Assembly (NCBI GenBank): GCA_951406725.2
Contig: OX597816.1
Location: forward strand, 18,042,001 to 18,106,000
DNA from: Octopus vulgaris
Lineage: Eukaryota
Length of the DNA: 64,000 nt
Reading direction: 5' to 3'
This document shows, in pieces, positions 1 to 48,044 of this stretch. The notes below the pieces were generated by a model. It made no database searches and had not been told where the DNA came from. It worked only from the letters and a program-made list of their open reading frames with translations. Position numbers and translations under genes: made by a program. The number at the start of each line of letters is the position of its first letter. Position 1 is the first letter of the stretch.

Positions 1-168
1 GATTAAAAATTAGTTGAAAGTCGAATCTCTTCGGAGGTAGTTGAAGATATAAAAATAGGTGTTCAGTTCCAACCATATAGGTAACTAACCAGTACTTTCA
101 TAGTATTTTGCTATACCTGAATGAGGTTTGTAACCTTTACTTGTGCTTATCTATCTATCTATCTATCC

Positions 169-202
<34 letters not shown>

Positions 203-203
203 A

Positions 204-251
<48 letters not shown>

Positions 252-473
252 TCAATATAGGGTGGCAAAAAAAAATGTTGTAGAATTCTTTTGCCACCAG
301 CGGCCTAGTGGGAAAAAATTAAATAGTCATAAACCATTTTTAAGTTCAACATCACAATCAAGGAACGGCCATAATAGGCCATTCACCCACTAGAAATAAC
401 AGCCAAAAGCTTTAACCGCAAAATAACGTCAATTCCGTAAACTAGGAGAAAATTGAAAAACATTTACCCTGTA

Positions 474-580
474 ATTTCTTAGACGATGCACCGTTTCATC
501 TTCTGTTTAATGGAAAACTAACCTGATTAAATTAAATCAAGCCAATCTACCATAGGCCCTTAGATTCATCAGTAAGAAAT
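474..580 (-). ncRNA. Type I hammerhead ribozyme, array copy 1
   Basis: Minus strand reads ATTTCTTA-CTGATGA-ATCT...AGAT-GAAA-CG gtgcat CG-TC-TAAGAAAT: 8-bp stem I, intact core, GUC cleavage triplet. Confidence 0.85.
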
Positions 581-965
581 AGCCAAGCCGGAACAGATAT
601 TTTTCACGAGGCATTCTCGTTGCTACCTCGTCAATATCTGACCTAAAATTTTCAAATCGTCGCACTCGCGCCAAATTTATCGGCAGCAAATAAATATAAG
701 CCGCCGATTCCATTACGGAATTAACCAGAAAATTCATAATTAATCAATATAGGGTGCCAAAAAAAAATTTTGTAGAATTCTTTTGCTACCAGCGGCCTAG
801 TGGGAAAAAATTAAATAGTCATAAACCATTTTTAAGTTCAACATCACAATCAAGGAAAGGCCATAATAGGCCATTCACCCACTAGAAATAACAGCCAAAA
901 GCTTTAACCGCAAAATAACGTCAATTCCGTAAACTAGGAGAAAATTGAAAAACATTTACCCTGTA

Positions 966-1072
966 ATTTCTTAGACGATGCACCGTTTCATCTTCTGTTT
1001 AATGGAAAACTAACCTGATTAAATTAAATCAAGCCAATCTACCATAGGCCCTTAGATTCATCAGTAAGAAAT
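966..1072 (-). ncRNA. Type I hammerhead ribozyme, array copy 2
   Basis: Same motif as 474-580. Confidence 0.85.
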
Positions 1073-1458
1073 AGCCAAGCCGGAACAGATATTTTTCACG
1101 AGGCATTCTCGTTGCTACCTCGTCAATATCTGACCTAAAATTTTCAAATCGTCGCACTCGCGCCAAATTTATCGGCAGCAAATAAATATAAGCCGCCGAT
1201 TCCATTACGGAATTAACCAGAAAATTCATAATTAATCAATATAGGGTGGCAAAAAAAAAATTTTGTAGAATTCTTTTGCCACCAGCGGCCTAGTGGGAAA
1301 AAATTAAATAGTCATAAACCATTTTTAAGTTCAACATCACAATCAAGGAACGGCCATAATAGGCCATTCACCCACTAGAAATAACAGCCAAAAGCTTTAA
1401 CCGCAAAATAACGTCAATTCCGTAAACCAGGAGAAAATTGAAAAACATTTACCCTGTA

Positions 1459-1565
1459 ATTTCTTAGACGATGCACCGTTTCATCTTCTGTTTAATGGAA
1501 AACTAACCTGATTAAATTAAATCAAGCCAATCTACCATAGGCCCTTAGATTCATCAGTAAGAAAT
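1459..1565 (-). ncRNA. Type I hammerhead ribozyme, array copy 3
   Basis: Same motif as 474-580. Confidence 0.85.
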
Positions 1566-1950
1566 AGCCAAGCCGGAACAGATATTTTTCACGAGGCATT
1601 CTCGTTGCTACCTCGTCAATATCTGACCTAAAATTTTCAAATCGTCGCACTCGCGCCAAATTTATCGGCAGCAAATAAATATAAGCCGCCGATTCCATTA
1701 CGGAATTAACCAGAAAATTCATAATTAATCAATATAGGGTGGCAAAAAAAAATTTTGTAGAATTCTTTTGCCACCAGCGGCCTAGTGGGAAAAAATTAAA
1801 TAGTCATAAACCATTTTTAAGTTCAACATCACAATCAAGGAACGGCCATAATAGGCCATTCACCCACTAGAAATAACAGCCAAAAGCTTTAACCGCAAAA
1901 TAACGTCAATTCCGTAAACCAGGAGAAAATTGAAAAACATTTACCCTGTA

Positions 1951-2057
1951 ATTTCTTAGACGATGCACCGTTTCATCTTCTGTTTAATGGAAAACTAACC
2001 TGATTAAATTAAATCAAGCCAATCTACCATAGGCCCTTAGATTCATCAGTAAGAAAT
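1951..2057 (-). ncRNA. Type I hammerhead ribozyme, array copy 4
   Basis: Same motif as 474-580. Confidence 0.85.
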
Positions 2058-2756
2058 AGCCAAGCCGGAACAGATATTTTTCACGAGGCATTCTCGTTGC
2101 TACCTCGTCAATATCTGACCTAAAATTTTCAAATCGTCGCACTCGCGCCAAATTTATCGGCAGCAAATAAATATAAGCCGCCGATTCCATTACGGAATTA
2201 ACCAGAAAATTCATAATTAATCAATATAGGGTGGCAAAAAAAAATTTTGTAGAATTCTTTGCCACCAGCGGCCTAGTGGGAAAAAATTAAATAGTCATAA
2301 ACCATTTTTAAGTTCAACATCAGGTTAGTTTTCCATTAAACAGAAGATGAAACGGTGCATCGTCTAAGAAATTACAGGGTAAATGTCTTTCAATTTTCTC
2401 CTAGTTTACGGAATTGACGTTATTTTGCGGTTAAAGCTTTTGGCTGTTATTTCTAGTGGGTGAATGGCCTATTATGGCCGTTCCTTGATTGTGATGTTGA
2501 ACTTAAAAATGGTTTATGACTATTTAATTTTTTCCCACTAGGCCGCTGGTGGCAAAAGAATTCTACAAAATTTTTTTTGCCACCCTATATTGATTAATTA
2601 TGAATTTTCTGGTTAATTCCGTAATGGAATCGGCGGCTTATATTTATTTGCTGCCGATAAATTTGGCGCGAGTGCGACGATTTGAAAATTTTAGGTCAGA
2701 TATTGACGAGGTAGCAACGAGAATGCCTCGTGAAAAATATCTGTTCCGGCTTGGCT

Positions 2757-2863
2757 ATTTCTTACTGATGAATCTAAGGGCCTATGGTAGATTGGCTTGA
2801 TTTAATTTAATCAGGTTAGTTTTCCATTAAACAGAAGATGAAACGGTGCATCGTCTAAGAAAT
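2757..2863 (+). ncRNA. Type I hammerhead ribozyme, array copy 5 (predicted cleavage after C2855)
   Basis: Stem I ATTTCTTA (2757-2764) pairs with TAAGAAAT (2856-2863). Core CTGATGA at 2765-2771. Long stem II closed by ATCT/AGAT. GAAA at 2840-2843, stem III ACG/CGT, GTC at 2853-2855. Confidence 0.87.
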
Positions 2864-3248
2864 TACAGGGTAAATGTTTTTCAATTTTCTCCTGGTTTAC
2901 GGAATTGACGTTATTTTGCGGTTAAAGCTTTTGGCTGTTATTTCTAGTGGGTGAATGGCCTATTATGGCCGTTCCTTGATTGTGATGTTGAACTTAAAAA
3001 TGGTTTATGACTATTTAATTTTTTCCCACTAGGCCGCTGGTGGCAAAAGAATTCTACAAAATTTTTTTTTGCCACCCTATATTGATTAATTATGAATTTT
3101 CTGGTTAATTCCGTAATGGAATCGGCGGCTTATATTTATTTGCTGCCGATAAATTTGGCGCGAGTGCGACGATTTGAAAATTTTAGGTCAGATATTGACG
3201 AGGTAGCAACGAGAATGCCTCGTGAAAAATATCTGTTCCGGCTTGGCT

Positions 3249-3355
3249 ATTTCTTACTGATGAATCTAAGGGCCTATGGTAGATTGGCTTGATTTAATTT
3301 AATCAGGTTAGTTTTCCATTAAACAGAAGATGAAACGGTGCATCGTCTAAGAAAT
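3249..3355 (+). ncRNA. Type I hammerhead ribozyme, array copy 6 (cleavage after 3347)
   Basis: Same motif as 2757-2863. Confidence 0.85.
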
Positions 3356-3741
3356 TACAGGGTAAATGTTTTTCAATTTTCTCCTAGTTTACGGAATTGA
3401 CGTTATTTTGCGGTTAAAGCTTTTGGCTGTTATTTCTAGTGGGTGAATGGCCTATTATGGCCGTTCCTTGATTGTGATGTTGAACTTAAAAATGGTTTAT
3501 GACTATTTAATTTTAACCCACTAGGCCGCTGGTGGCAAAAGAATTCTACAAAATTTTTTTTTTGCCACCCTATATTGATTAATTATGAATTTTCTGGTTA
3601 ATTCTGTAATGGAATCGGCGGCTTATATTTATTTGCTGCCGATAAATTTGGCGCGAGTGCGACGATTTGAAAATTTTAGGTCAGATATTGACGAGGTAGC
3701 AACGAGAATGCCTCGTGAAAAATATCTGTTCCGGCTTGGCT

Positions 3742-3848
3742 ATTTCTTACTGATGAATCTAAGGGCCTATGGTAGATTGGCTTGATTTAATTTAATCAGG
3801 TTAGTTTTCCATTAAACAGAAGATGAAACGGTGCATCGTCGAAGAAAT
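3742..3848 (+). ncRNA. Type I hammerhead ribozyme, array copy 7 (T>G at 3841 breaks the first stem I pair)
   Basis: Same motif but reads GTC-GAAGAAAT instead of GTC-TAAGAAAT. Confidence 0.75.
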
Positions 3849-4235
3849 TACAGGGTAAATGTTTTTCAATTTTCTCCTAGTTTACGGAATTGACGTTATT
3901 TTGCGGTTAAAGCTTTTGGCTGTTATTTCTAGTGGGTGAATGGCCTATTATGGCCGTTCCTTGATTGTGATGTTGAACTTAAAAATGGTTTATGACTATT
4001 TAATTTTTTCCCACTAGGCCGCTGGTGGCAAAAGAATTCTACAAAATTTTTTTTTTTGCCACCCTATATTGATTAATTATGAATTTTCTGGTTAATTCCG
4101 TAATGGAATCGGCGGCTTATATTTATTTGCTGCCGATAAATTTGGCGCGAGTGCGACGATTTGAAAATTTTAGGTCAGATATTGACGAGGTAGCAACGAA
4201 AATGCCTCGTGAAAAATATCTGTTCCGGCTTGGCT

Positions 4236-4342
4236 ATTTCTTACTGATGAATCTAAGGGCCTATGGTAGATTGGCTTGATTTAATTTAATCAGGTTAGTT
4301 TTCCATTAAACAGAAGATGAAACGGTGCATCGTCTAAGAAAT
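4236..4342 (+). ncRNA. Type I hammerhead ribozyme, array copy 8 (cleavage after 4334)
   Basis: Same motif as 2757-2863. Confidence 0.85.
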
Positions 4343-4729
4343 TACAGGGTAAATGTTTTTCAATTTTCTCCTAGTTTACGGAATTGACGTTATTTTGCGG
4401 TTAAAGCTTTTGGCTGTTATTTCTAGTGGGTGAATGGCCTATTATGGCCGTTCCTTGATTGTGATGTTGAACTTAAAAATGGTTTATGACTATTTAATTT
4501 TTTCCCACTAGGCCGCTGGTGGCAAAAGAATTCTACAAAATTTTTCTTTTTGCCACCCTATATTGATTAATTATGAATTTTCTGGTTAATTCCGTAATGG
4601 AATCGGCGGCTTATATTTATTTGCTGCCGATAAATTTGGCGCGAGTGCGACGATTTGAAAATTTTAGGTCAGATATTGACGAGGTAGCAACGAGAATGCC
4701 TCGTGAAAAATATCTGTTCCGGCTTGGCT

Positions 4730-4836
4730 ATTTCTTACTGATGAATCTAAGGGCCTATGGTAGATTGGCTTGATTTAATTTAATCAGGTTAGTTTTCCAT
4801 TAAACAGAAGATGAAACGGTGCATCGTCTAAGAAAT
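4730..4836 (+). ncRNA. Type I hammerhead ribozyme, array copy 9 (cleavage after 4828)
   Basis: Same motif as 2757-2863. Confidence 0.85.
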
Positions 4837-4959
4837 TACAGGGTAAATGTTTTTCAATTTTCTCCTAGTTTACGGAATTGACGTTATTTTGCGGTTAAAG
4901 CTTTTGGCTGTTATTTCTAGTGGGTGAATGGCCTATTATGGCCGTTCCTTGATTGTGAT

Positions 4960-5036
<77 letters not shown>

Positions 5037-34607: not shown

Positions 34608-35803
34608 GTGCATCGTTCTTTGTAAAACATCTCAACTCTTAAAGTTCATGATTTTTTCCAGATATAGCTCGAACTATATACAGCTATGTATAGTCCGCCT
34701 TTGTTTCTAAAGACGTGATTTACTGCAGATTTAGCTGCTATTTCTAGTAGGTCATGCAATTAAATAGAGGTTCCGACACAGTGCATCGTTCTTCGTAAAA
34801 CATCTCAACTCTAAAAGTTTATGCTTTTTCCAGATATATTTCTTTATTGCCCACAAGGAGCTAAACGTAGAGGGGACAAACAAGGACAGACAGAGGGATT
34901 GAGTCGATTACATCGACCCCAGTGCGAAACTGGTACTTTATCTATCGATCCCGAAAGGATGAAAGGCAAAGTCGACCTCGGAGGAATTTGAACTCAGAAC
35001 GTAACGACAGACGAAATACCACTAAGTATTTCGCCCGGCGCGCTACATGTCTGCCAGCTCGCCGCCTTATGCTTTTTCCAGATCCAGCTCGAACTATATA
35101 CAGCTATGTATAGTCCGCCTTTGTTTCTAAAGATGTGATTTACTGCAGATTTAGCTGCTATTTCTAGTAGGTCATGCAATTAAATAGAGGTTCCAACACA
35201 GTGCATCGTTCTTCGTAAAACATCTCAACTCTAAAAGTTCATGCTTTTCCCAGATATATTTCTTTATTGCCCACAGTGGGCTACACACAGAGGGGACAAA
35301 CAAGGTCAGACAAACGGATTAAGTCGATTACATCGACCCTAGTACGAAAGTGGCACTTTATTTATCGATCCCGAAAGGATGAAAAGCAAATTCGACCTCG
35401 GCGGAATTTGAACTCAGAACGTAACGACAGACGAAATACCTATTTCTTTATTACCCACAAGGGGCTAAACAGAGAGGGGACAAACAAGGACAGACATAGG
35501 TATTAAGTCGATTACATCGACCCCAGTGCTTAACTGGTACTTAATTTATCGACCCCGAAACGATGAAAGGCAAAGTCGACCTCGGCGGAATTTGAACTCA
35601 CAACGTAACGCAAACGAAATACCGCTAAGCATTTCGCCCGGTGTGCTAACGTTTCTGCCAGCTCGCTGCCTTATGCTTTTTCCTGATATAGCTCGAACTA
35701 TATACAGCTATGTATAGTCCACCTTTGTTTCTAAAGATGTGATTTACTGCAGATTTAGCTGCTATTTCTAGTAGGTCATGCAATTAAATAGAGGTTCCGA
35801 CAC
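34608..35803. repeat. Three tandem 173-bp units; units 2 and 3 carry family A SINEs (minus) at the same site
   Basis: Units start at 34608, 34781 and 35201. SINEs at about 34838-35068 and 35258-35672 are flanked by ATGCTTTTYCCWGAT. Confidence 0.88.
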
Positions 35804-47524: not shown

Positions 47525-47566
<42 letters not shown>

Positions 47567-47758
47567 TAATACTAAGCAATTAAGGGTTTAGCAACGAATT
47601 GCCTCACCACACACCGAATTTAGAAATAGCAGTCAAAGAGTTATAGCTATTCTTTCTACTAAAAGGGAGATCTCAGCAAAAACACAGCACTTGAAAGGCA
47701 AACACAGACAGGTAAGAGAGAATGAAATGACGGCAATCTATCATACAATTTTAAGTCA

Positions 47759-47849
47759 CCTACGGACGTACGTTTCGAAATCAAGTTTTAGGAAAGCATA
47801 AGAATTAGATAATTCTACCTTACCCAACTTCTTTTCTCATCAGCGTAGG
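47759..47849 (-). ncRNA. Type I hammerhead ribozyme in a PLE-like element (about 47563-47900)
   Basis: Minus strand reads CCTACG-CTGATGA-GAAA...(long stem II)...TTTC-GAAA-CGTACG-TC-CGTAGG: perfect 6-bp stem I, palindromic stem III, GUC triplet. Confidence 0.85.
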
Positions 47850-48044
47850 ACACTACAATTATGAATAATTGTATATTAAATTTTGAGATACTAGAAGTCA
47901 TCATCTCAACTCAGTATCAGTACACGAGCAAAATGCTCCTCACCTCATCCAATGGACGTTGCTGAGTTGTCAAACATTTAAAGCAAATTGTCCCAAAACA
48001 ACTTGCCCGACCGCCCCATAGGCCTCCCCTTTGAGAAACACTGA

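Follow-up and report, generated by a model that had tools for sequence, protein, structure and literature searches.

Paired fixed ends in a family of head-to-head hammerhead-ribozyme insertions in Octopus vulgaris

Animal retrozymes without long terminal repeats (non-LTR retrozymes) are described as units of 150-450 bp for which tandem complementary DNA (cDNA) copied from circles has been proposed (PMC7229834); they are linked to the pseudo-long terminal repeats (pLTRs) of Penelope elements, with local amplification also invoked (10.64898/2026.07.22.740005), and a circular RNA form, handled by Penelope-like enzymes, has been proposed as their means of movement (PMC7229834; 10.64898/2026.07.22.740005). 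In Penelope insertions an inverted copy is accompanied by a tail of 30-40 bp, which often lies at one end; both are attributed to endonuclease resolution or self-priming (PMC8557442, PMC3846280), and a Penelope-like protein, predicted to form a dimer, cut and extended both DNA strands in vitro from two internal RNA start sites that bound the tail (PMC11167929). A palindromic loop III and dimeric hammerhead cleavage have also been described (PMC4209133). Here we examine a 64,000-nucleotide (nt) stretch of Octopus vulgaris DNA (assembly GCA_951406725.2, contig OX597816.1, positions 18,042,001 to 18,106,000; hereafter the window) in which a 492-bp hammerhead-ribozyme unit has been inserted head to head into a (TA)n tract, one arm with 4.2 copies and the other with 5.4. 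The arms are 99% alike, both outer ends adjoin (TA)n, and the palindrome and its ends in (TA)n exceed what chance would give. As the ribozyme sense of both arms points outwards, both outer ends correspond to RNA 3' ends. Positions within the unit are given as phases, phase 1 being the first base 3' of the predicted ribozyme cut in the reference unit 2856-3347.

Reading the core by hand placed a hammerhead at 2758..2862, with a 7-bp stem I, CUGAUGA, a 4-bp stem II carrying an insert of ~60 nt, GAAA, and a short stem III with a palindromic UGCA loop. The tandem units of the two arms together hold nine complete motifs, and folding gave -24.5 kcal/mol when constrained to the hammerhead versus -27.7 kcal/mol unconstrained. 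Rfam returned no match in the window at its gathering threshold and a weak one to Hammerhead_3 below it (E = 3.1), so the assignment rests on the hand-read core and stems. The unit shares with animal retrozymes a presumed lack of coding capacity, its low GC content (~36%; AT-rich), its tandem arrangement with a type I hammerhead per copy, and its dispersal as dimers to multimers in a multi-copy family (PMC7229834; 10.64898/2026.07.22.740005). It differs from them in the ~60-nt stem II insert and in its length, which lies outside the 150-450 bp range, although that range is descriptive and not defining. Circular RNA has been demonstrated for animal retrozymes, whereas for the 492-bp family it is a proposal. 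A term search of PMC7229834 and 10.64898/2026.07.22.740005 found no match for inverted arms, fixed ends or tails.

We surveyed the 2.8-Gb assembly (227 contigs), in which the family numbers many hundreds of copies, using two sets of loci. The unseeded set comprised the best 40 of 920 candidates, the window included, picked by similarity to the unit alone. The seeded set comprised 60 regions, all within the initial 112 Mb of contig C1 and picked by one end pattern (of 84 such regions, 3 were already in the sample, 2 were merged into 1 and the last 20 were left out). This revealed that 78 of 101 insertions are two-armed head-to-head copies and that their outer ends lie at two fixed sites, A at phase ~131 (128-136) and B at phase ~235-238 (227-244), both of which finish in AT against a TA run. 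Among the 78, 68 pair one A end with one B end, none pairs A with A or B with B, and 10 have odd or cut-off ends; the unseeded set (35 two-armed loci) contributed 32 A+B and 3 B+odd pairs, and the seeded set (43 two-armed loci) contributed 36 A+B pairs, 5 odd ones and 2 cut off at the edge of the stretch. On the forward strand 384 A ends and 618 B ends precede a TA run, compared with none for the reversed control patterns, and (TA)n flanks are also found in the unseeded set, where flanks played no part in the choice. A GC-closed hairpin is predicted 12-17 nt 5' of each site; in the window, site B lies 14 nt 3' of one. The original prediction, which read the window locus as twin-primed retrotransposition of a multimeric or rolling-circle cDNA, had anticipated random start phases in other copies, and these fixed ends contradict that expectation.

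Sequence variants indicate that the two arms of a locus were copied from one template. At 52 loci with at least 60 shared unmasked positions, the arm-to-arm mismatch within a locus had a median of 0 versus 1.8% to other loci, and at 20 of them the partner arm was closer than any other locus. Twenty private alleles, spread across 10 loci, occur in both arms. A single one of four family haplotypes runs throughout in 25 of 27 loci with at least two full units, which means that the enzyme did not switch among the distinct monomers available to it. At five loci private variants are fixed in every covering unit of both arms, which calls for a one-unit bottleneck, most simply a circle.

The reach and stopping points of the arms were compared at 66 clean loci, namely the 78 two-armed copies less the 10 with odd or cut-off ends and 2 with extra pieces. 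Once the A-B offset was corrected for, the A arm extended further 5' at 29 loci and the B arm at 22 (p = 0.40), while the two came within 40 nt of each other at 15; the excess of one arm amounted to as much as 2.9 kb (A) and 5.4 kb (B), and in the window the A arm exceeds the B arm by 0.67 kb. Short arms stop preferentially at phases 1-40 (A, 12 of 16, p = 0.003; B, 11 of 21, p = 0.0006, versus a uniform distribution), with only 1 and 2 arms, respectively, stopping in the 40 nt on the far side of the cut. This clustering points to an RNA 5' end close to or at the cut. In 9 of 36 end-seeded loci both arms finish at phases 1-40, and in 13 both extend across the cut. The inner ends of long arms are spread over the whole unit and are enriched around the hairpin of site B (24 of 88 at phases 183-237, a range picked post hoc). 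None of the four arm ends of the window locus coincides with the predicted cut, as had been noted for this locus; that statement does not extend to the family, given the clustering of its short arms.

The inner junctions vary. An overlap of at least 2 nt was scored at 30 of 66 loci by a first caller and at 10 of 64 by a strict one that treated end mismatches as filler, and as the two disagree we claim no rate of microhomology. The arms are joined at the same phase at 8 of 64 loci, 2 of these at perfect palindromic words. Separately, inner junctions with extra unit-derived pieces were seen at L033, L041, L048, L052, L059, L114 and L126, suggesting template switches during joining. L106 holds two distinct short A+B insertions ~500 bp apart and was excluded from the arm-mismatch, short-arm-stop, junction and mirrored-substitution comparisons.

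The inverted copy and one-sided tail are an already known Penelope architecture, and the family has the marks of a Penelope insertion: an inverted head-to-head copy, a tail at one end lying between two candidate start sites, and a microsatellite target. Further points held in common are 5' truncation, the (TA)n/AT-rich target (PMC8557442, PMC3846280, PMC11167929), the palindromic loop III of the hammerhead and the two internal start sites. Unlike Penelope-like elements, the insertion consists of 492-bp units only, without the reverse transcriptase (RT) and GIY-YIG open reading frame (ORF), its tail measures 104-107 nt rather than 30-40, and both of its arms can be single-haplotype multimers. 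The Penelope tail is moreover described as optional or 'often at one end', whereas in this family the pairing is exclusive (68 of 68 classifiable pairs).

We consider it probable that the window locus is a non-LTR retrozyme insertion moved by a Penelope-like RT-endonuclease that uses two fixed RNA sites on one template. Tandem copies would be transcribed and cut by the hammerhead to 492-nt monomers, some of them circularised, as in known retrozymes; the clustered stops lend the cut indirect support. The enzyme would then cut both strands of a (TA)n tract, the target seen at these loci, after which the two DNA ends would each prime through AT pairing, one at site B and its counterpart at site A, which lies about 104-107 nt further upstream in that single template. 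The fixed ends and the one-of-each pairing are observed, and priming from them is the step we infer. On a cleaved linear monomer both cDNAs would run off near the cut and leave a short, near-symmetric palindrome, whereas on a circle they would travel several rounds toward the RNA 5' side and leave multimeric one-haplotype arms such as those of the window. The cDNA 3' ends are joined at variable phase by short microhomology (ATCA in the window), bluntly or with filler. The A-B interval would thus be the Penelope 'tail', and the process would resemble L1 twin priming with a programmed second site. A bolder version, which we put forward tentatively and hold to be somewhat less likely than its alternatives taken together, has an enzyme dimer hold one circular RNA at two programmed sites and run two simultaneous rolling-circle reverse transcriptions, one per end of a double-strand cut in (TA)n; Penelope tails and inverted repeats at large would then be what such obligate priming at two sites leaves behind.

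Several observations weigh against this proposal. The pile-up of stops at phases 1-40 may reflect a transcription start or a weak hairpin (phases 11-39) instead of the cut, and 48 private alleles are confined to one arm. In the window, phase 39 is mixed, 7 of 10 units having a private allele and the other 3 the common one (L035 is likewise mixed); under a single monomer circle, this would need subsequent conversion or polishing of the assembly. One haplotype would equally result from a linear multimer transcript that is homogeneous. The 11-unit arm at L047:2568-8084 has variants recurring every 4 units, suggesting local duplication after insertion or a multimeric template, and implies that some array length was gained after insertion. 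Uncleaved RNA was the dominant substrate in vitro, and neither start site was strand-biased (PMC11167929). Finally, a DNA comparison found no coding Penelope element similar to the unit in 42 GIY-YIG loci drawn from the best 150 of 6,136 candidates.

The closest competitor, which we regard as unlikely, has twin priming take place on a single transcript that is linear, uncleaved and no shorter than 9.6 units; the B cDNA would halt at the second primer annealed to an upstream A site, which would produce the 5-nt overlap. It corresponds to the geometry originally proposed for the window, and much of that description holds: the 5-nt overlap between CATCA (2318-2322) and TGATG (4956-4960) is real (left inner phase 128, right outer phase 132), flipping 2323-4955 restores one continuous array whose junction unit measures 491 bp with no break, ATCA at 2319-2322 is common to both arms, both outer ends lie in (TA)n, and the arms, at 4.2 and 5.4 units, are multi-unit cDNAs that pass the ribozyme site. 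The contiguity is not supported as a signature. With outer ends confined to two positions family-wide, phase 132 at the right end is no more than site A, and the question becomes whether B arms tend to stop there. The inner end of the B arm falls within 10 nt of the A outer end in only 6 of 66 loci; where the B arm extends past the cut, the figure is 2 of 39, compared with 1.7 expected (p = 0.50). Four loci have B arms stopping at phase 128-131, a seeming small excess before a genome-wide pattern for stops at phase 131 was applied; this gave 2 matches, both loci already in the sample, versus 0 and 1 at control phases, in a weak test, since it sees only exact-21-mer copies and keeps roughly a third to half of true stops. 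The 5-nt contiguity at the window is thus probably chance, although a minority class with a true primer block may exist among B arms. Overlapping short arms (9 of 36 loci), in which both cDNAs cover the same RNA stretch, also argue against a linear twin-primed transcript, as do the intact hammerhead core in each unit and the array-wide private variants, which would still need a one-unit bottleneck somewhere in the lineage. What is supported of the twin-priming reading is integration-coupled priming from both DNA ends, a single template and multimeric cDNAs; the contiguity signature and random starts are unsupported.

Self-priming, in which a cDNA folds back and is copied, an endonuclease trims the product at A and loss from the centre leaves unequal arms, has been proposed for Penelope (PMC3846280), as has endonuclease resolution for the tail (PMC8557442). 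This snap-back would give one-of-each ends and identical arms with no further assumptions, and would accommodate the 15 of 66 loci that are symmetric within 40 nt and the 8 of 64 joined at the same phase. A fold-back copy cannot, however, exceed its template in length unless a deletion follows, and the A arm is the longer one at 29 of 66 loci, by up to 2.9 kb, which would require large one-sided deletions in very young copies. Both tail boundaries are moreover reverse-transcription starts in vitro (PMC11167929), and none of 62 unit-specific substitutions is mirrored between the arms, a weak test in that later mutations and read errors would also be unmirrored. We judge snap-back to be a shade less likely than the linear transcript.

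That short two-armed insertions later grew into arrays by local tandem amplification, as proposed for retrozyme arrays (10.64898/2026.07.22.740005) and in keeping with the 4-unit periodicity of L047, seems improbable as a general account, given that an arm shorter than one unit has no repeat from which to expand, that both arms cross the cut in 13 of 36 end-seeded loci, and that arrays of 5-11 units with ~99% identity and private variants fixed in both arms occur at many dispersed loci. A later DNA inversion between CATCA and TGATG, the original prediction's own alternative, would explain why the flip restores a continuous array, but we set it aside almost entirely: it would have to create by chance the exact site-A end found at hundreds of loci, one of its breakpoints would have to fall no more than 5 nt from the former edge of the array, and 78 of the 101 examined copies are two-armed with other junctions. 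An assembly artefact from fold-back reads is just as implausible, even though the window's own junction is not among the 32 pieces listed (6,658 more) from four public runs, since the arms differ in length and phase as fold-back chimeras do not, the A and B ends are fixed family-wide, and at least 12 other head-to-head joints of the unit occur among the pieces listed (contigs from four runs and four studies; single contigs with 20-29 letters on the short side), which places the two-armed architecture outside this assembly. Contigs from these runs also show loose TA ends at site B.

The enzyme we propose has a candidate in a young Penelope-like family with an intact 781-amino acid (aa) RT + GIY-YIG frame (L168:2439-4784). 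The copies of this family, most of them 97-99% alike and one at 91%, terminate in (TA)n at two positions ~40 nt apart, and on contigs C1-C2 these ends (99 A' and 16 B') form three A'+B' pairs and no like pairs. The unit and coding Penelope-like elements have only a loose shared motif; the L168 family exhibits the pairing rule but lacks detectable DNA similarity to the unit, and is a candidate partner. A match at L133 was rejected as a coding partner: it is a short A-end copy in its own right, and a decayed element lies 1.1 kb away.

With L1 twin priming (10.1101/2024.08.27.596794) the family has in common that both nicks would prime on the same RNA, that joining involves microcomplementarity and that the 5' part is inverted; its geometry and shared haplotypes fit both DNA ends priming on one RNA. 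L1, however, uses poly(A) for the first primer and a chance internal site for the second, while this family lacks poly(A) at either end, has two fixed sites and shows cDNAs that cover overlapping parts of the template. The element would work like twin priming and is best classed as a non-LTR retrozyme with Penelope signatures, and is neither an L1 product nor autonomous. We found no precedent in the open-access literature for strict A+B pairing or single-haplotype multimeric arms, the supplements of 10.64898/2026.07.22.740005 and PMC11167929, which may bear on this, lying outside that scope. The field regards the mechanism behind the tandem and inverted insertions of Penelope-like elements as undefined (PMC8557442), and the passage from retrozyme circle to genomic tandem copies is a hypothesis (PMC7229834) to which local amplification is the published alternative (10.64898/2026.07.22.740005). 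Hundreds of young natural products obeying a sharp rule (one A, one B, one haplotype) separate insertion models and make these two open questions countable, the A+B rule connects the pair of start sites seen in vitro with the pair of DNA ends, and the 492-nt unit offers a compact, ready-made substrate for a decisive assay. If the bolder version above is correct, hundreds of copies would record circular versus cleaved-linear templates one by one.

Table 1. Coordinates of features at the window locus.
Feature	Coordinates	Strand	Remarks
Left target microsatellite	148..246	.	(TATC)n passing into (TA)n
B arm	247..2322	-	4.2 units, RNA sense leftward; outer (3') end phase 235, inner 128-132
Site B, candidate priming site 1	247..260	-	Ends AT against TA run; putative role
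Predicted hairpin, phases 183-221	261..298	-	Directly 5' of site B; recurs every unit
Type I hammerhead motif, B-arm outermost copy	475..579	-	Further copies 967-1071, 1460-1564, 1952-2056
CATCA	2318..2322	+	5-nt in-phase overlap with 4956-4960
Inner head-to-head junction	2319..2322		4-nt ATCA microhomology; B-arm phase 128-131, A-arm phase 447-450
A arm	2319..4960	+	5.4 units, RNA sense rightward; inner phase 447, outer (3') phase 132
Type I hammerhead motif	2758..2862	+	Predicted cut after 2855; further copies 3250-3354, 3743-3847, 4237-4341, 4731-4835
Reference unit, cut to cut	2856..3347	+	492 nt; predicted monomer / circle
Motif, phases 76-92	4904..4920	+	Common to unrelated repeats ending in (TA)n; candidate recognition signal, putative role
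Predicted hairpin, phases 98-119	4926..4947	+	12-13 nt 5' of site A
Site A, candidate priming site 2	4948..4960	+	Putative role
Right target microsatellite	4962..5017		(TA)28, then (GA)n; target-site duplication illegible inside

Among the 61 seeded insertions, 18 are one-armed within their stretch; of these, 12 have a B end, 6 have an A end, and one is cut by the edge. The unit is also present in public runs X2 and X14, whose labels name two other organisms, which extends the family to related species; public runs guessed to be RNA contain about half of the unit's words and were not used as evidence of expression. In the L168 family, a 479-aa open frame at L168:1081-2520, with no convincing Pfam match, lies upstream of and overlaps the 781-aa frame, and the core of the family's hammerhead-like motif is a variant one.

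Unrelated repeats share a 15-nt motif with the unit, with a TA run at most 80 nt downstream at 9 of 26 outside matches compared with 886 of 7,785 random places, and looser versions of it occur close to where coding Penelope-like copies end on the 3' side; the motif is a candidate for a shared recognition signal. A separate single element at ~47560-47850 of the window (minus strand) carries a type I hammerhead motif of its own, with the shared motif 125 nt past the cut, and terminates in (TA)n; it likely represents another Penelope-derived non-coding family. At 34653-35800 of the window, a 420-bp tandem with three occurrences of the shared motif is interleaved with a short interspersed repeat of ~184 bp, and other short repeat families lie as inverted arms beside (TA)n at L138:2500-2700 and L101:1800-3200.

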